A stretch of 35,347 nucleotides of DNA from a virus (IMGVR_UViG_3300044729_000291:1-35347), one strand, 5' to 3'; shown: positions 14,827 to 35,347, counted from the first letter of the stretch. The notes: a model not told the origin generated them from the letters alone. Translations and numbers: made by a program.

Positions 14827-15681
14827 TTACGCTGAAATATACACGAAGCTTCCAACCAAATAACCACCTGCAACTTCAAGCGCAGTTGCTGTTACTGTCC
14901 CTGAATTTTGCTTCCAAATGGTAACGGTTGTTGCGCTTGAATCTGTTGTAAAACCAATAGGTGTTATTGCACTTATCCATGCAAAAGCAGATGAAGTCGC
15001 TGTCCCATCAGTAGTAAACGGCAAACCAGAAATGGTGCAGCTATTTGACGTTGTGCCTGCCGCATCAGCACCAATGTAAAAAGACGCCGTTACCAATCTT
15101 CCAACTTTGACGTATTTTCCGGATTGTCCTCTTGGGTATGTAAAAGTTGCGCCAGTTGAAACTAATGCTGGCGTCCAAGTACCTTCTTCATAATCGGCCA
15201 GCAACTCGCTTGTGCCTGTGCCCGGTGTGGCAGAAAAGTCGATGCCTTTTGTATCTGCCATAACAAGGTTGCCAGTGGACAGCGTAACGTTACCCACCAA
15301 GGTCGGGGCCGTTGCCAGCACGTTGTTTCCAGTGCCTGTGTTGGTGACGCTGACAATCTCTTTGCTTGCATTCAGCGCCAAGGCTGTAGATGCAGTTAAG
15401 TTTGACAAGGTGCTTGTGCCTGAGACAGAAAGGTTTACGCCGTTCAGATCAGCACCGCCCTCGACTCGCTGCCAGACCGAGCCGTTGAAGGTTGCAAGGT
15501 CGCCCACGCCCCAATTGCTGATGCCGTCGAGGGCCGTAGTGCCTGCCACGCTGACAACGTAGTAGTCGCCCTTGGTGCCGACACCAGATGCCAATGCTGG
15601 GCTGTTGGTGCTGGCATTCCACGTGCCTTTGTAGTTCAATGCACCGATGGCATTGGTGATGGACGAAACTGTTTTTAGCAT
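14827..15681 (-). CDS. Tail fiber protein
   Basis: The N-terminal motif YKGTWNASTNSPALASGVGTKGDYYVVSVAGTTALDGISNWGVGDLATFNGSVWQRV is widespread in phage tail fibers. The rest is Thr/Ser/Gly-rich. Confidence 0.75.
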   Translation of the reverse strand: MLKTVSSITNAIGALNYKGTWNASTNSPALASGVGTKGDYYVVSVAGTTALDGISNWGVGDLATFNGSVWQRVEGGADLNGVNLSVSGTSTLSNLTASTALALNASKEIVSVTNTGTGNNVLATAPTLVGNVTLSTGNLVMADTKGIDFSATPGTGTSELLADYEEGTWTPALVSTGATFTYPRGQSGKYVKVGRLVTASFYIGADAAGTTSNSCTISGLPFTTDGTATSSAFAWISAITPIGFTTDSSATTVTIWKQNSGTVTATALEVAGGYLVGSFVYISA

Positions 15682-24002: not shown

Positions 24003-24299
24003 TTACTTCTTTGCCTTGTTTCTGGCCGAGATTTTCCTTGCCTTCTCCTGTGCGTCAGCCTTGGACGATGCGCCCCATGCCCTCAAGCTCAGCAGCAGGC
24101 GGGTAGGTTCACCGTTCTTGTATTCAGGGCCAGCACTGCCACCCATACGGGCCAAGAATGACGCCCTGCGCGGATTGTCACCCGACTTGACAGGGGGCTT
24201 CAGGTTCATGCCTTCGGCCTTGGCTGCGGCACGCCCTTTGGCGTTTAAACCGCCCTTTGGGTTTTGGCCTTCCTTACGCGCATAAGCGGGGGTTTTCAT
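24003..24299 (-). CDS. Small basic protein (98 aa)
   Basis: MKTPAYARKEGQNPKGGLNAKGRAAAKAEGMNLKPPV...NPRRASFLARMGG. Lys/Arg-rich. Abuts the gp10-like start. Confidence 0.65.
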   Translation of the reverse strand: MKTPAYARKEGQNPKGGLNAKGRAAAKAEGMNLKPPVKSGDNPRRASFLARMGGSAGPEYKNGEPTRLLLSLRAWGASSKADAQEKARKISARNKAKK

Positions 24300-29798: not shown

Positions 29799-31856
29799 TT
29801 ACCTGACAACGGGCTGCGTTTGTTCCTGGACAATGCCGCCAATCTCTTGCGCCAGATTCAGCGCATGGTCTTGGGAGTCCATGTCGATGTTGGCCAGCGT
29901 CTCGACGGTTTTGGCTCGGCTGAGTTCCGCATCGGCCACGGTCTTTACGGTGCTGGCGCGTGCCTGGGCTGCTTTTGCCGTGGCTTCCTCGGCAGCGGCT
30001 TGCAGATACATGGCGTTCGGGTCTTGCGGCTGGCCCTGCATTTCGGCCATGAGTTCCTGCGCCTCGTCCTCGGTCGGCTTGACCACGCCCATGCGAAGGA
30101 GCTTCTTCCTGAAGTAGGCGTTGGCATCGGAAACGCCCTCGCCCTCCATGTTCATCATCGCCATTGCGGTCAAAACTTGTTGCGTTTCAGGGTCTTGCGT
30201 GATCTGCATCATGCCGGTCAAAGCTCGGACCGTTGCCGCACGCTTGCTGCTGGACGATGGGCCGACCTGGGATACAACGTCAAAGGTTGCGTTGCTCATG
30301 TCGTTAGCCATCACCATTGCGCCGGTCTCTGGGTCGATGGTGGGCTGCATTAGCTCGACCATGCCAGCCTCGCCAGTCGGGGCGATGGTTTTCATCTTCC
30401 GCTTGTCCTCGGTGTAGATGTCTCGTGCCATGCTCAACCAAATTTCACCGCAGCGCTTCATGCCTTTGGCAAAGTTGGACATGTAGATAAAGGTCTGCAT
30501 GTCCACGCGAGATTGGATCATCTCCACCGCTTTACCAGATACGCCAGAAACCATCTTATCGGCACCCTGCTGATTGCCGAGAATGTCCTGCATATCGGTC
30601 TCGGTGATCTGAAGCAGAGCCGCCATTGCAGGCGGTATGGCTGCGCTTTTGGTGTAGGCCATTGGCCCGGCAGCTTGCGTGTTGCCATCTGGCCCGGTGA
30701 TCGGGTTGATCAGCAGATAAGGATAATCGCGCAGGTTGTCCTCGGCCCACATCACCTGATGGCCGGCCACCTGCTCAGGCGTCATGATGGGCTTCTCGAT
30801 GCTGGACAAGGCACTAATCTCGCCCAGCTTGGAGAGTTGCATGTTCTTGAGGCGCTGGGCATCTTTGGCCAAGCGCACATGGCCCATGCAGCGCTCGATG
30901 TTGTCCACAAACCAGCGCTTGCCGTAAACGACCACGATCGGGATGCACTTGCCTGCGATGTAGCCGGCATCCTCCAGCACCTTGCCGCCACTCATAATGT
31001 ATTTTCGGACGCGCATACGCTTGACGCGCTTCTGGCGCACTTCCCTTGTGCCGATGGCAATCAGGGTTTCTTCCAACGTCTCGTCGTTCTCAAAGTCTGC
31101 GGCTGTGTAGCGTTCCTCGACGCCGCCGATGGTTTCAAAAATACGGACGGTCTCGCTCTTTTCTTCCAGCTTGTAATACTCAGCCACAAAAACAATATCA
31201 GGCGTTGACCAATCAAACTCGTATTGATGGATGACCTTCGGCCAGTCGGTCGGATCGTCGTTGTATATTTCCTTGTAACTTTCGCGGGTCATGCTCGTGA
31301 CAACGAAGCAGTATTTCGCGTCGGACTTGTCTTGGCGCTTGGCGTTCAGGTCAAAGAATACAGAACTGTCAGCGTCGTAGATCGGCTCAAAGCGGATGCG
31401 CTGGCGGTCATCGTTCTCATCTTCCTCGTCCTCGTAGACGGTGCGTAGACGCCAGGAACCAATGCCGCCACCGACCGCTTCCTCGAAGGCATTGTCGTAG
31501 GCTTCGTCGGCCACGGATGCCTGCTCGTCTGCGCGGTAGAGTCCGTCGCAAACCTCGGCCAGCTTGTCATTCTCAGTGCCGTCTTTGGACACATAGTCCA
31601 CGGTGATCCGGTTGTTGCGGTATTCGTTGACGATCCGAATCACCGACAACATGATCTTGTTGACTTCAAACTTGGGCTTGTTCTCGTATTGGTAGGCCAA
31701 TGGGCCTTCCCATTGAGCGCCGCACAGGGAATAGAAACGACGGTCTTGCAGGCATTGCAGGCGCTCATCACGCAGCGCGGTCTGGATGTCATTGAACTGC
31801 CGCAGGGCTTCAGCGTGCAGATTAGACAGCCGTTGATCGTTCGAGATTCGGGCCAT
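29799..31856 (-). CDS. Portal protein, P22-type
   Basis: 685 aa. ...DRRFYSLCGAQWEGPLAYQYENKPKFEVNKIMLSVIRIVNEYRNNRITVDY... is the conserved N-terminal region of P22-like portals. It follows TerL. Confidence 0.9.
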   Translation of the reverse strand: MARISNDQRLSNLHAEALRQFNDIQTALRDERLQCLQDRRFYSLCGAQWEGPLAYQYENKPKFEVNKIMLSVIRIVNEYRNNRITVDYVSKDGTENDKLAEVCDGLYRADEQASVADEAYDNAFEEAVGGGIGSWRLRTVYEDEEDENDDRQRIRFEPIYDADSSVFFDLNAKRQDKSDAKYCFVVTSMTRESYKEIYNDDPTDWPKVIHQYEFDWSTPDIVFVAEYYKLEEKSETVRIFETIGGVEERYTAADFENDETLEETLIAIGTREVRQKRVKRMRVRKYIMSGGKVLEDAGYIAGKCIPIVVVYGKRWFVDNIERCMGHVRLAKDAQRLKNMQLSKLGEISALSSIEKPIMTPEQVAGHQVMWAEDNLRDYPYLLINPITGPDGNTQAAGPMAYTKSAAIPPAMAALLQITETDMQDILGNQQGADKMVSGVSGKAVEMIQSRVDMQTFIYMSNFAKGMKRCGEIWLSMARDIYTEDKRKMKTIAPTGEAGMVELMQPTIDPETGAMVMANDMSNATFDVVSQVGPSSSSKRAATVRALTGMMQITQDPETQQVLTAMAMMNMEGEGVSDANAYFRKKLLRMGVVKPTEDEAQELMAEMQGQPQDPNAMYLQAAAEEATAKAAQARASTVKTVADAELSRAKTVETLANIDMDSQDHALNLAQEIGGIVQEQTQPVVR

Positions 31857-31879
31857 GTTTGTCCTTTGGGGGCGATTAT

Positions 31880-33103
31880 CTACCAGCGCTTGACATTCGG
31901 CAATGGCAAGAATAGCGCCGGTTTTGTGATTGCCGACCGCCGCACGCCCTCGCAGGCATAGCGCAGGGCGTCGATCACGTGGTTTTTCTTGTCCTCCAGC
32001 AGCGGCAGGATTCTACCGGTCAGCGGGTCTTTCTTGTAGGAATAGAGGCTCAGTTCGTCGATGGTGTGGGTGCAGCGCGGGTGAACCACGATGTCGTAGT
32101 TCTTCAGGAACTCAATGCCTTCCTCGACCGACTTCGGGCCTTTGACGGCGGTCATGATCTTGGGAAAGCCGTTCTTTCTCATGTGGCTGATGGTCTCCGG
32201 CCTGGCTGAGTCGGCCACGATGGGCCACTTCTCGGCCTCCGGCACCTGCATAAATAGCTCTGGCGTGTTGACGATCTCGCAGCCAACCATGTAAGCCTCA
32301 TGGTCGATGTAGAGCGTGCGCCCGATGATGTGGCAGCGCACCAATGTGGTCGGGTCTACCGCAAAGCCCCAGTCTGCACCAAGCCGGTGGATGGCGTCGG
32401 GCGGTGCCTCAAACTCGTCAATGCGCCAGTTCTTGAATACCTGGCTGTTGCTGTTGGTCAGGTAGCTGCCCATCCAGACGTGCCGGAATTTGTCGGGATC
32501 GCGGCGCTTGTCGTATTCCATCTCGTCTTTGAGAACGGAAGGGAACCACGGATTGTCTGAAAAGTTGACCTTAATGACCGTGGCATCCTTCGGCGGCGTC
32601 GGGCCTCGGAGCAGGAAGTCTACCGGGTCAGATTCTTGGCGCGGGTTCCACGTGAACCATAGCTCGCTGCCTGGCTTGCGGATTGTGGGCCGCAGCAGGT
32701 CTAGGCTGTTCTGGCTCAAGCTCTGGGCTTCCTCTACCCAGGCGCAGTCGTAGCCCTCCAGAGACTTTATCGAGTCGGCGGTGTGGTTTTGCATACCCTG
32801 AAAGATGATCGCGCCATCGGACTTCTTGGATTTAATGACGGCATCCTGCACTTCAAAGTATGCGCCGGCATTCATGTCCTGAATCTTAGTCTCAAGCAGA
32901 CGCTTGACGGACTGGTTGAGTGACTTCTGAATCTCCCGCACGCATACGCTGCGCCGCTTCTGGTTCATGATGTGCGCCTCGATCATAAGCTCGGCCATCA
33001 TGTGACTTTTGCCAGATCCACGTCCGCCCCACGCACCCTTGTAGCGGCTCGGCTCCAGCAGGGGCAGCGCCCATTCGGGGGTTGGCAGTTGCAACGTTGT
33101 CAA
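31880..33103 (-). CDS. terL: Terminase large subunit (PBSX / Terminase_3-like)
   Basis: Walker A WGGRGSGKSH. Walker B-like region YDCAWVEEAQ. 407 aa. 4-nt overlap with terS. Confidence 0.9.
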   Translation of the reverse strand: MTTLQLPTPEWALPLLEPSRYKGAWGGRGSGKSHMMAELMIEAHIMNQKRRSVCVREIQKSLNQSVKRLLETKIQDMNAGAYFEVQDAVIKSKKSDGAIIFQGMQNHTADSIKSLEGYDCAWVEEAQSLSQNSLDLLRPTIRKPGSELWFTWNPRQESDPVDFLLRGPTPPKDATVIKVNFSDNPWFPSVLKDEMEYDKRRDPDKFRHVWMGSYLTNSNSQVFKNWRIDEFEAPPDAIHRLGADWGFAVDPTTLVRCHIIGRTLYIDHEAYMVGCEIVNTPELFMQVPEAEKWPIVADSARPETISHMRKNGFPKIMTAVKGPKSVEEGIEFLKNYDIVVHPRCTHTIDELSLYSYKKDPLTGRILPLLEDKKNHVIDALRYACEGVRRSAITKPALFLPLPNVKRW

Positions 33104-33540
33104 GATTTTACCACTACGCGCTCAATCCGCTGCACCAGTGGATTGGCAGGATCGCCAGACACTTCGATCTTATCTCCATACTTTTTCGGGGCCAGCTTGG
33201 ACAATAGCCATTTGCGGGTGTCAACCTGCAGGCGTTGCTTTTGAACAGCGCCTGAGTCGGTTGCGCCGCTGTCAGTGCTGCCAACCGGGGTATCTGCAAT
33301 CTCCAATAGCTCATTAGCCATCTTCTCAATCAGCGCCTCGCGCGCGCGCGCGTAATTTTCCGCAAGCGTAACATCATCATCGACCCAACGGGAGAAAGTG
33401 CTTTGAGGAACGCCAGCGGCTTGACAGGCTTTGAAGGCGCTCAAACCGCTTCGCATTCCATCAATCACCATCTGGCTGATTACCAGCCGATCTTCGCTGC
33501 CTGGCTTAGTTCTCTTGGTTTTGTGGGTTTTGGTGGTCAT
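33100..33540 (-). CDS. terS: Terminase small subunit (N-terminal HTH)
   Basis: AFKACQAAGVPQSTFSRWV (HTH) and the C-terminal DTRKWLLSKLAPKKYGDK motif, both common in small terminases. First gene of the late operon. Confidence 0.75.
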   Translation of the reverse strand: MTTKTHKTKRTKPGSEDRLVISQMVIDGMRSGLSAFKACQAAGVPQSTFSRWVDDDVTLAENYARAREALIEKMANELLEIADTPVGSTDSGATDSGAVQKQRLQVDTRKWLLSKLAPKKYGDKIEVSGDPANPLVQRIERVVVKS

Positions 33541-33561
33541 GCTTCATTGTCCTTTATTTTT

Positions 33562-33590
33562 AATATGCCTGTGGATAACTTTACCGTCAA
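33562..33590 (-). promoter_or_regulatory. Candidate sigma70-like promoter for the late (terS) operon
   Basis: Minus strand: TTGACG (33590-33585), a 17-nt spacer, CATATT (33567-33562), then AAAGGA and the terS ATG at 33540. Confidence 0.45.
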
Positions 33591-33603
33591 ACCCTGCCGC
33601 ATC

Positions 33604-33722
33604 GATGCCCCCCCTGCCCCCTCACTCTTAAGAGTGTGAGGGGAGGGGAGGGGGCTTTTCGAGCGTTTTGCCCCCTAACCCCAAAACCCCCTAAAAGGGG
33701 ATTGAGGGGGCTAGGGGGCATC
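33604..33722. repeat. Nested C-tract/G-tract inverted-repeat element
   Basis: The outer inverted repeat is gatgccccccctgccccctc (33604-33623) against gagggggctagggggcatc (33704-33722). A perfect 14-nt palindrome cactcttaagagtg lies at 33623-33636. The heptamer GCCCCCT occurs at 33616 and 33670, and its complement AGGGGGC at 33649, 33705 and 33713. Confidence 0.9.
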
Positions 33723-35347
33723 ACGATTGCCCACCTTTTCGCATCATCATGGCGCTTGATTGGACATCATCGACCACGATCCAGCCGTGTTCGAAGGTGC
33801 TGATAATCTCGGAAAGGATGAGTGCGCCGATCAGTTTGTCGGGATATGCCACGCTCATATCGTTCTCAATTGTGCGTGGTTTCCGGCCATCGGCTGCCAG
33901 CTTGTCTTTGAGTGCCGACCGGCTCAGATAGGGCAAACCGTCGCGGATTTCGGCACCGGAGGCCCACCAAGCGTTTTCAAAGGTCTTGCGGTGGCTGTCG
34001 ATTTTGCTGTTTTTCTTGGATGGTGCGGGCGCATTGGCCTGCACAATCACCGCACTTGTGACCTGCTGGCCGTCCTCATCGAGCCAGCCGGGAATGGCTA
34101 CCTGCTGCAGCTCAACATGGACGGTTTCGGCCATTTCAGCGTCTTTAGACTTGCGCTGGACGATCTGCATGGGGATTCCTTCCTTGCCCGGCACGATGGA
34201 GATTTCAATATCCAAAGCGCCGCGCCAGGCTGATGAGCCTCGCGCCCGGTGCTGGGCCTCGTCGGAGACGCCAGTGTGGTGGACGAGGATAACGGAACAA
34301 TCGAACTCCATCATCAATGCGTTACAGGCATCCAGCATGGTCTTGGTATCTTGGGCTGAGTTCTCATCGCCAGCCAAGAATCGGTGCAGGGTATCGACCA
34401 CGATCACGCTGGGCGGGTTTGGCAGCATCCTGACCTGCTCGACCACCTTGAGGTAGCCAACCGGGGTGTTAAGGTCGCAGCCGTCCTTTGAGAGCCACAT
34501 CGCCATTTTACCTGTCGGAGCGTTGTGGTGCTTCCAAGCCGCCACCCGGCCACGCAGACCGTGGTGGCCCTCGCCGGCCAGATAGACCACGTTTCCCTGC
34601 CGCACCTTGTGGCCTGCCCAGTCCTCGGTGCCGGATGCCATCCGCAGGCACCAGTCCAGCACTACAAAGGTTTTTCCGCCTCCTGATGGGCCGTGAACCA
34701 TCACCAGGGCTTGGGATTGAATCCAGCGCTTGACAAGCCATGAGATCGGGGAAGGCTGGGCGCAGAAGTCATCGGCTGGTATGAGCCAGTCATCTTTGAT
34801 TGGCATCAAAAGCCCTACAAGATTATGCCCGGCCTGGGCGTAGTCGTTGGCATCACCGAGGATTGGCGGCATGACCATCCGAGCGCCATATTTGGCCGAT
34901 GCCTGCTCTGCATACCTTTGGCCGACGCCAGATAAATCATGATCTGCCACGATCATAATGGATTGAGTGACTCCGTATTTTTCTCGGAGTGTGCCAGTCA
35001 CCGGCACTAAATTGCTAGCGCTGTAGGCCACCACGCAGGGGCGGCTGGTGGCTTCGTGGATGGTCGCTGCCGTGGCAAAGCCCTCGGCTACGAATAGAAC
35101 GCCCGGTTCGTCCATTGTGCCGACCATCCAGTATTTACCGCCTGTTTGCCCTCCGGGGTGATACAGCTTGCCGCCATCATCATCAATGTATTGAAGGGTG
35201 GCGAGGGTGCCATCCGCATTATACAAAGGCACCATCAGCCTGCCATCGCCAGTGGTGCGAACGCCGTGGGTCTGGATGCCCTTGCGTTTCAAGTAGGGGT
35301 GATCGGGATGGGCCGCTATGCCACTGAGCCATATCTTTTCTACCGTC
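33721..35347 (-). CDS. Primase-helicase, C-terminal part (TOPRIM domain plus RepA-like/AAA_25 ATPase); 5' end continues at 519..1
   Basis: TOPRIM: VAEGFATAATI (Glu) and IVADHDLSG (DxD). ATPase: Walker A VHGPSGGGKTF and SVILVHHTG. The track start at 35292 is only an in-frame TTG. The frame stays open to 35347 and, after circular joining, back to ATG 519, giving 672 aa in total. Confidence 0.9.
   Translation of the reverse strand, partial: TVEKIWLSGIAAHPDHPYLKRKGIQTHGVRTTGDGRLMVPLYNADGTLATLQYIDDDGGKLYHPGGQTGGKYWMVGTMDEPGVLFVAEGFATAATIHEATSRPCVVAYSASNLVPVTGTLREKYGVTQSIMIVADHDLSGVGQRYAEQASAKYGARMVMPPILGDANDYAQAGHNLVGLLMPIKDDWLIPADDFCAQPSPISWLVKRWIQSQALVMVHGPSGGGKTFVVLDWCLRMASGTEDWAGHKVRQGNVVYLAGEGHHGLRGRVAAWKHHNAPTGKMAMWLSKDGCDLNTPVGYLKVVEQVRMLPNPPSVIVVDTLHRFLAGDENSAQDTKTMLDACNALMMEFDCSVILVHHTGVSDEAQHRARGSSAWRGALDIEISIVPGKEGIPMQIVQRKSKDAEMAETVHVELQQVAIPGWLDEDGQQVTSAVIVQANAPAPSKKNSKIDSHRKTFENAWWASGAEIRDGLPYLSRSALKDKLAADGRKPRTIENDMSVAYPDKLIGALILSEIISTFEHGWIVVDDVQSSAMMMRKGGQS
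35221..35347. repeat. Terminal overlap, copy 2 (identical to 1..127)
   Basis: Direct comparison of the two window ends. Confidence 0.95.

Follow-up and report, generated by a model that had tools for sequence, protein, structure and literature searches.

A putative iteron-type replication origin and its co-varying specificity module at the 3' end of a phage primase-helicase gene

The viral genome sequence IMGVR_UViG_3300044729_000291:1-35347 (35,347 nucleotides; the whole stretch is referred to as the window) carries a conspicuous repeat element in the 180-bp gap (33541-33720) between the stop codon of a primase-helicase gene (33721-33723, - strand) and the ATG (33540-33538) of the small terminase gene terS. 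The element is probably a bipartite iteron array, built here from the word GCCCCCT and located immediately 3' of the primase-helicase gene, i.e., it represents a familiar class of element, here in a neat form that can be swapped. As judged from comparative sequence analysis, it is likely an iteron-type replication origin that is read by the C-terminal domain of the adjacent self-loading primase-helicase. Among related phages, the architecture of the element is conserved, its words are replaced in concert, the word co-varies with the C-terminal module of the primase-helicase and not with TerS, the exchanged segment has cassette boundaries, and a DnaA box is conserved. An earlier note on this DNA had listed a replication origin and a protein-binding array beside the replication gene among several options, and these two are supported by the comparative evidence.

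The element consists of the following parts.

33670-33719, palindrome A: long imperfect GC palindrome; on the sense (-) strand, GCCCCCT twice in direct orientation and a CCCCT half-word, then a 3-nt centre and inverted AGGGGG(T/C) words.
33656-33669, spacer between palindromes A and B: sense AAAACGCTCGAAAA, 14 nt, 64% A+T; GCAAAA...AAA-type in most relatives.
33607-33655, palindrome B: long imperfect GC palindrome; direct words, a central non-word palindrome and inverted words.
33623-33636, central palindrome of B: perfect 14-nt palindrome CACTCTTAAGAGTG.

Each palindrome contains two to three direct and two inverted words, and the first word of palindrome A begins 1 nt past the primase-helicase stop codon in the window; in all 35 loci compared it likewise lies directly 3' of the stop. 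Counted together with its complement, GCCCCCT occurs six times in the window, which is not above chance (4.9 expected), and its clustering is extreme: five copies lie within 33616-33719, matching the five heptamers in about 105 bp described before, and the sixth lies isolated at 24192. The CCCCT core is present in 10 copies in 33607-33719; the remainder of the window has 0.07 copies per 123 nt. Of the four strongest local inverted repeats in the window, three belong to palindromes A and B; the only other strong one is found at 14875-14941 (21-nt arms, 25-nt loop). In a check for periodic arrays, a 5-nt run of three GAGGG units was the only repeat run reported at the element. C-tracts (33608-33621 and 33671-33691) alternate with G-tracts (33640-33654 and 33697-33718), AGGGGGC (33649-55) and GCCCCCT (33670-76) stand on either side of the 14-nt sequence ttttcgagcgtttt, and an outer repeat of 19 nt matches at 84%, with GATGCCCCC/GGGGGCATC pairing at 9 of 9 positions. 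Thus, the gap, the four tract blocks, the 14-nt palindrome, the heptamer pair and the outer repeat had been read correctly from the sequence, as had cccct-aaa-agggg, apart from coordinates that were off by one base. Central AT content is restricted to the 14-nt spacer, a possible short melting or bending tract, and to the TTAA/TTTA/TATA centre of palindrome B; phage PB15, introduced below, has a longer AT-rich stretch.

Relatives were retrieved via TerS, which yielded 80 IMG/VR loci, 29 of which also carried an orthologue of the primase-helicase. Added to these 29 loci in the comparison were the three isolates whose proteins are most similar (55-58% identity) and another three metagenome loci, retrieved via homologues of the C-terminal domain. 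In all loci compared, 34 relatives besides the window, palindrome A, spacer and palindrome B directly follow the primase-helicase stop codon, and about 10 different words were found.

Type 1 (window, L001, L004, L026, L038): GCCCCCT
Type 2 (L005 and others): GCCCCT
Type 3 (L019, L034): GGTAAC
Type 4 (L020 and others): GGAACG
Idiomarinaceae phage 1N2-2: GGTACA
Salicola phage CGphi29: GGGACA
Alteromonas phage PB15: GGTTCA
Three further metagenome loci: GACCCT, GGGTACA and an ACCCT-type word

Within one genome, the same word is found in both palindromes and as direct repeats within an arm, and all copies differ in concert between genomes. Such concerted change is required by a common sequence-specific reader, whereas folding of RNA or DNA does not require it. 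The shared layout comprises one or two DnaA boxes in types 3 and 4, palindrome A (two to three direct words, a short centre and inverted words), the GCAAAA...AAA-type spacer, palindrome B with a TTTA, TATA or TTAA centre, a GATGCRG-like motif and, downstream of the element in one fixed orientation in 27 of the 35 loci, the DnaA-box pattern TTATNCACA. Palindrome B is the architectural feature best conserved across all 35 elements. The sequence of its central palindrome varies, while palindromy and the TA-rich centre are kept through compensatory changes, e.g., aacgta-tacgtt versus agcgta-tacgct, or cacacct-tt-aggtgtg and ccctaacccta-tagggttaggg in other loci. Since small indels occur in the arms, gapless palindrome scoring across the relatives captures the central cores only. 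The comparison with related phages that the earlier note had proposed bears out the layout and the compensatory changes, but not the G- and C-tracts, which many relatives lack (words GGTAAC, GGAACG, GGTACA and GGTTCA).

In type 2 loci, e.g., L005 at about 2650-2661, the final codons of the primase-helicase gene (aat cgc ccc taa, i.e., N R P stop) coincide in part with the first iteron, so that the C-terminal residues of the protein and its predicted binding site share the same bases. Two contigs each contain two primase-helicase/terS copies: IMGVR_UViG_3300036985_000346 (60.7 kb; L004/L034) with word types 1 and 3, and 3300042465_000805 (39.7 kb; L015/L027) with word types 2 and 4. Both probably arose in assembly, as chimeras or concatenates of related phages that occur together, which suggests that different specificity types coexist in one sample.

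The word type was compared with the sequence of the adjacent protein, of which the following parts are relevant.

33721-35347, continuing at 128 to about 519, - strand: primase-helicase gene (Toprim_3 plus AAA_25/RepA-like), about 672 amino acids in full.
33724-33891, - strand: hypervariable specificity module, i.e., the last 56 residues of the primase-helicase (helices H2-H3 and beyond).
33724-34053, - strand: C-terminal 110 residues as modelled by AlphaFold2, order H1-β-H2-H3-H4-β-β-H5, with a mean predicted local distance difference test score (pLDDT) of 87.7.

The gene runs across the ends of the window. Bases 1-127 repeat 35221-35347 as a 127-nt terminal direct repeat (unique length 35,220 bp); thus, the window is a circularly closed assembly, and the primase-helicase gene crosses its junction. 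The full length of about 672 residues agrees with the 661-669-residue proteins of the isolates, and the open reading frame of 523 residues that starts with TTG at 35292 merely reflects where the circle was cut. Residue numbers 1-523 given here refer to this partial reading frame; adding 149 converts them to full-length numbering.

Primase-helicases of types 3 and 4 are 83-100% identical to that of the window over alignment columns 1-480, only 23-27% identical in columns 481-510, and about 50% identical from there to the end. Over the last 56 residues, identity to the window is 84-88% for type 1, 35-38% for types 3 and 4 and 32-41% for type 2. In comparison, the respective values for residues 1-465 are 82-88%, 86-88% and 43-49%. 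TerS, which served as negative control for co-variation, is 72-93% identical to that of the window whatever the word type, e.g., 93% in L002 (type 2) and 83% in L004 (type 1). The boundaries of the exchanged segment are visible in the DNA as well. Counted from the stop codon, L004 (type 1) shares 90-97% identity with L020 (type 4) up to about -380, 20-55% from about -180 to +120 and again 100% by +200. Thus, C-terminal module and repeats form one mosaic cassette of about 450 bp between flanks of at least 90% identity. Types 3 and 4 differ in another manner: their C-terminal modules are 83-87% identical, their repeats 52-65%, and every copy of the word is changed.

The hypervariable block maps onto H2-turn-H3 of the confident C-terminal model. 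Each of the about 10 word types has a distinct H2-H3 sequence, with a cassette boundary in both protein and DNA, and similar recognition helices pair with similar words, as is apparent from the H3 series.

H3 TSAKQYIK: word GGTAAC
H3 SSAKVYIK: word GGAACG
H3 ATAKNYMK: word GGTACA
H3 STAKNYTK: word GGTTCA
H3 RKPRTIEND: word GCCCCCT

The upstream protein is labelled DNA primase/helicase in PHROGs, and in a PDB sequence search its helicase part, as the only part matched, hit RSF1010 RepA (1g8y, E = 1.3e-6). For the C-terminal domain, no Pfam family (E <= 10) and no PHROG family was found. A Foldseek search of the C-terminal model against the PDB gave no significant match (best E = 0.09, TM about 0.4-0.5), and many of the top matches were winged-helix domains (among them CRP/FNR, SelB, forkhead, MarR, GntR, Hel308 and RuvB); the origin-binding domain of P4 alpha was not found among the 50 Foldseek matches listed.

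Two observations on related loci concern the modular build of this protein. In L086, a stand-alone gene of 109 amino acids (1486-1815) encodes the origin-binding-like C-terminal domain alone, with no helicase upstream and with divergent upstream genes; its own two-palindrome element (1816-1960) follows, and then a ParB_N/N6_N4_Mtase gene. The C-terminal domain is thus autonomous and can be uncoupled from the helicase. In type 2 loci (L005, L009 and others), the Toprim N-terminus is 83-100% identical to that encoded in the window (33721-35292) and the helicase domain 13-40%, and the C-terminal module and the central palindrome (AACGTATACGTT) also differ strongly from those of the window. This is domain-level mosaicism within a single replication gene.

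On the side of the late genes, the element is flanked by the following features.

33597-33603, - strand: GATGCGG motif, directly after palindrome B.
33570-33578, - strand: DnaA box, perfect consensus TTATCCACA, the sole perfect copy in the window.
33562-33590, - strand: sigma-70-like promoter match TTGACG-17-CATATT (9/12 matches), upstream of terS and overlapping the DnaA box.
33100-33540, - strand: terS, Sf6-type small terminase, the first downstream gene.

The single perfect DnaA box compares with about 0.27 matches expected from length alone. In types 3 and 4, one or two additional DnaA boxes are located right behind the stop codon, so that boxes are present on both sides of the element. 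GATGCRG follows palindrome B in 25 of the 35 elements irrespective of the word type, with ACGCGG-like sequences at this place in distant relatives; a role as priming or loading site is speculation. The promoter scan gave two sites as compared to 1.5 in shuffles, i.e., not above chance. The sigma-70-like match is weak, and since it is not conserved in relatives, it was not relied upon as a late promoter.

A mechanism can be proposed on this basis. The winged-helix-like C-terminal domain of the Toprim/RepA-type primase-helicase would read the words, as the co-variation suggests. With opposed word sets on the arms of each palindrome, oligomers of the initiator may come to face each other head-to-head around the A-rich spacer and around the core of palindrome B with its TA centre. 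By analogy with the Rep proteins of Staphylococcus aureus pathogenicity islands (SaPI), with P4 alpha and with the initiators of simian virus 40 (SV40) and papillomaviruses, the DNA would then melt or the palindromes extrude, the helicase would load itself, and the fused primase would start synthesis. In this clade, initiation might be assisted or regulated by host DnaA that binds the conserved box or boxes next to the element. The RNA hairpins of the early transcript would be a by-product of the inverted iterons and may act secondarily, as a 3' stabiliser or as a partial barrier between early and late genes.

A more far-reaching combination of these ideas is tentative and on balance unlikely. 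According to it, the palindromic form itself would be required: the C-terminal domains would drive cruciform or hairpin extrusion, and the RepA-type helicase would load on the loops, so that the origin would be both structure- and sequence-specific. The element, when occupied by initiator and DnaA, would in addition gate early read-through into terS and the late genes and thereby couple late transcription to replication. The cassette of about 450 bp would be a plug-and-play specificity module, and the roughly 10 or more cognate pairs would constitute a small recognition code.

Several points weigh against the assignment as a replication origin. Firstly, we infer both binding and origin activity from comparison alone. 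Secondly, the iteron sets are not separated by a long AT-rich unwinding element of the kind present in the SaPI origin (ori); the spacer comprises 14 nt with 64% A+T. Thirdly, the C-terminal domain looks winged-helix-like in the model, an assignment that is not statistically secured. Fourthly, the DnaA box is missing in the distant relatives 1N2-2, CGphi29, PB15 and L084-L086, and it could instead be part of a control region of the downstream late genes. Finally, the C-terminal coding segment adjoins the repeats, so that co-inheritance by linkage could account for part of the co-variation. Pure hitch-hiking is argued against by the concerted change of 5-10 word copies and by the contrast between types 3 and 4, whose C-termini are about 85% identical while their words differ.

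The conspicuous hairpins may alternatively represent an RNA element on the early transcript, i.e., terminators, a barrier or 3'-end stabilisers between early and late genes, including an attenuator. This reading is rather improbable, although the folding is pronounced and the position is exactly at the junction of early (replication) and late (packaging) genes. Folding as RNA against dinucleotide-shuffled controls, as advised in the earlier note, gave z-scores of -5.25 (sense) and -4.52 (antisense), and none of 200 shuffles was as good. The sense RNA (190 nt, -91 kcal/mol) forms two very stable hairpins; as DNA, each single hairpin reached -17.5 to -20 kcal/mol (z = -3.1 to -4.0), with -18 to -20 kcal/mol for hairpin A (z -3.1/-4.0). 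Either strand folds as two separate hairpins, A (33670-33719) and B (33607-33655). That each block can pair with either neighbour holds on paper, but in the ensemble about 15 base pairs are expected between blocks 1 and 2 and about 18-21 between blocks 3 and 4, while pairing of blocks 2 and 3 is below the reporting cut-off and that of blocks 1 and 4 is 0.0. Enforcing the 2:3 helix yielded -77.7 instead of -85.1 kcal/mol, i.e., a cost of 7.4 kcal/mol. With this cost, and with no U-tract on the sense strand, the proposed attenuator-like set of mutually exclusive helices is not upheld.

Termination likewise finds little in its favour. The sense-strand hairpins are followed in the window by AAAACGCUCG and AUCGAUGCGG and not by a U-tract, which is absent after them in all word types, and the terminator scan detected no site inside the element. 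On the antisense strand, UUUUCGAGCGUUUU with a UUUU tail comes after hairpin B, which would suit a terminator, yet this U-tract is not conserved in types 3 and 4. The sigma-70-like match just downstream in the window would also fit an RNA element at this place. Scanning the whole window at Rfam gathering thresholds gave no hit, and a permissive scan of 33450-33800 returned only sub-threshold hairpin noise resembling microRNAs or small nucleolar RNAs. An RNA element would moreover not account for the use of one word in both hairpins, for its direct repetition within an arm or for its co-variation with a protein domain.

Of similarly low probability is an array that is bound by the C-terminal domain without being the origin, such as a regulatory roadblock that couples the level of the initiator to late read-through, or a cis-acting enhancer resembling crr of P4, with the true origin elsewhere. 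It would draw on the same co-variation as the origin does, and the location between early and late genes would suit it; P4 does have a second repeat cluster, crr, that is distinct from its ori. However, the flanking DnaA boxes are typical of origins, and since the 35-kb genome has no other cluster of the words (the sixth GCCCCCT being isolated), there is no second candidate site for the initiator.

A pac site or TerS recognition array starting headful packaging upstream of terS is very unlikely. The element does lie immediately upstream of terS in the window, and some TerS binding sites typically contain repeated short words. Since TerS does not co-vary with the word, a role in packaging, also considered in the earlier note, is disfavoured. 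In most relatives (L004, L005, L020 and others), a small extra gene (start MNNKRETPNF...) lies between the element and terS; the window lacks this gene (33541-33606), and terS comes directly after the DnaA box. The primase-helicase stop, in contrast, is always directly adjacent to the element. In 1N2-2, CGphi29 and PB15, the downstream genes are not terS at all.

The G-quadruplex or i-motif suggested by the G4-G7 runs on both strands is hardly credible: a regular-expression search for four tracts of at least three G with loops of at most 12 nt found no motif on either strand, the tracts are tied up in duplexes or hairpins of very high stability, and the homologous elements of relatives manage without G- or C-tracts.

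Two further candidates were rejected. A TIGR array was considered because the relative CGphi29 carries TIGR-Tas (PMC12045711); such arrays consist of tandem units of about 36 nt with two alternating repeats of 8-12 nt and variable spacers of about 9 nt, beside a tas gene encoding a Nop domain (PMC12045711). The window contains no 36-nt periodic array, and the neighbours of the element are the primase-helicase gene and terS; no window-wide search for Nop domains was made. A dispersed repeat of the repetitive extragenic palindrome or miniature inverted-repeat transposable element type was rejected as the repeats form a single cluster in the phage genome.

All genes flanking the element are located on the - strand, with the Toprim_3 plus AAA_25 protein upstream and the Sf6-type TerS, TerL and a P22-like portal protein downstream. 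Inside terS, a 14-nt alternating run, (CG)7, at 33339-33352 was scored as a terminator-like match on the + strand; alternating CG runs are usually considered prone to form Z-DNA. Among the structural genes, the segment 13001-15000 has a low GC content (0.40-0.41 as compared to about 0.53 elsewhere), which points to a module acquired by horizontal exchange. No match to 31000-35347 was found by megablast among phage GenBank records. Scans of genome contigs for a host or prophage, with the protein and with the C-terminal alignment, found no relatives.

If correct, the assignment would provide a concrete origin for widespread, little-studied podovirus-like phages of about 35 kb, i.e., the relatives of 1N2-2, CGphi29 and PB15 and many IMG/VR genomes. 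Judging by titles and abstracts, none of the papers found that name these three phages deals with replication origins, and PMC12629253 does not mention 'origin of replication', 'primase' or 'iteron'. The interest lies chiefly in the clean natural series of cognate initiator/origin cassettes; the iteron type of origin itself is already known. About 10 cognate pairs of recognition helix and word in genomes that are otherwise at least 90% identical offer a ready-made system in which to follow how initiator-origin specificity evolves through the exchange of cassettes. This series possibly informs on replication incompatibility between co-infecting phages and could help to design orthogonal replicons. 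More generally, inverted protein-binding sites can, as a by-product, give rise to conspicuous 'RNA-like' hairpins where operons meet.

The earlier statement that no element of this form has been described goes too far, as SaPI (PMC9371898) as well as P4 and pRN1 (PMC4234260) provide precedents. The closest functional analogue is the Rep/ori system of SaPI, where a C-terminal winged helix of Rep binds iterons of 5-6 nt; 6-12 of these directly follow rep, and each side has at least two, oppositely oriented (PMC9371898). The SaPI initiator is a self-loading helicase, sometimes fused to a primase, that recognises its iterons in an island-specific manner and is related to MCM-group helicases (PMC9371898). 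Similarly, about 10 copies of the CCCCT core directly follow the stop codon here in opposed sets that are lineage-specific. Unlike in SaPI, the helicase is of the RepA(RSF1010)/AAA_25 type and is fused to Toprim, DnaA boxes flank the element, and the C-terminal domain shows no detectable sequence homology. Instead of the central AT-rich region of the SaPI ori, the element has a pair of separate GC-rich palindromes, a spacer of just 14 nt and a core palindrome centred on TA.

P4 alpha combines a Toprim-type primase, a helicase and a C-terminal winged-helix origin binder for short repeats in one polypeptide (summarised in PMC4234260). The same Toprim-helicase-winged-helix logic is found here, the winged helix being predicted. 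P4 alpha has a superfamily 3 (SF3) helicase and needs the distant crr repeats, and its octamer repeats are not known to form two palindromes abutting the gene. At the origins of SV40 large T and papillomavirus E1, inverted pairs of pentamers or hexamers around a central palindrome bring two helicase hexamers head-to-head; these are eukaryotic viruses with sequence-unrelated SF3 helicases, and the analogy is one of mechanism only.

In pRN1 (ORF904) and in Bordetella phage BIP-1, a stem-loop origin of about 100 nt is located directly 3' of a primase-helicase-winged-helix gene and is conserved in structure but not in sequence (PMC4234260). As in pRN1, a structured site follows the primase-helicase gene here, and its structure is kept while its sequence varies. 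In contrast to pRN1, which has a prim-pol and an SF3 helicase and is said to lack iterons, two stem-loops are present, and their stems are built from iterons. Iterons combined with host DnaA boxes, as at the element described here, are known from P1 oriR, F oriS, pSC101 and RK2, and RSF1010 oriV is another plasmid origin for comparison. Plasmid iterons are about 17-22 bp long, mostly direct and bound by a dedicated Rep rather than by a helicase, and RSF1010 uses separate RepC, RepA and RepB' proteins together with ssi hairpins. The helicase domain of the phage protein is, in turn, homologous to RSF1010 RepA.

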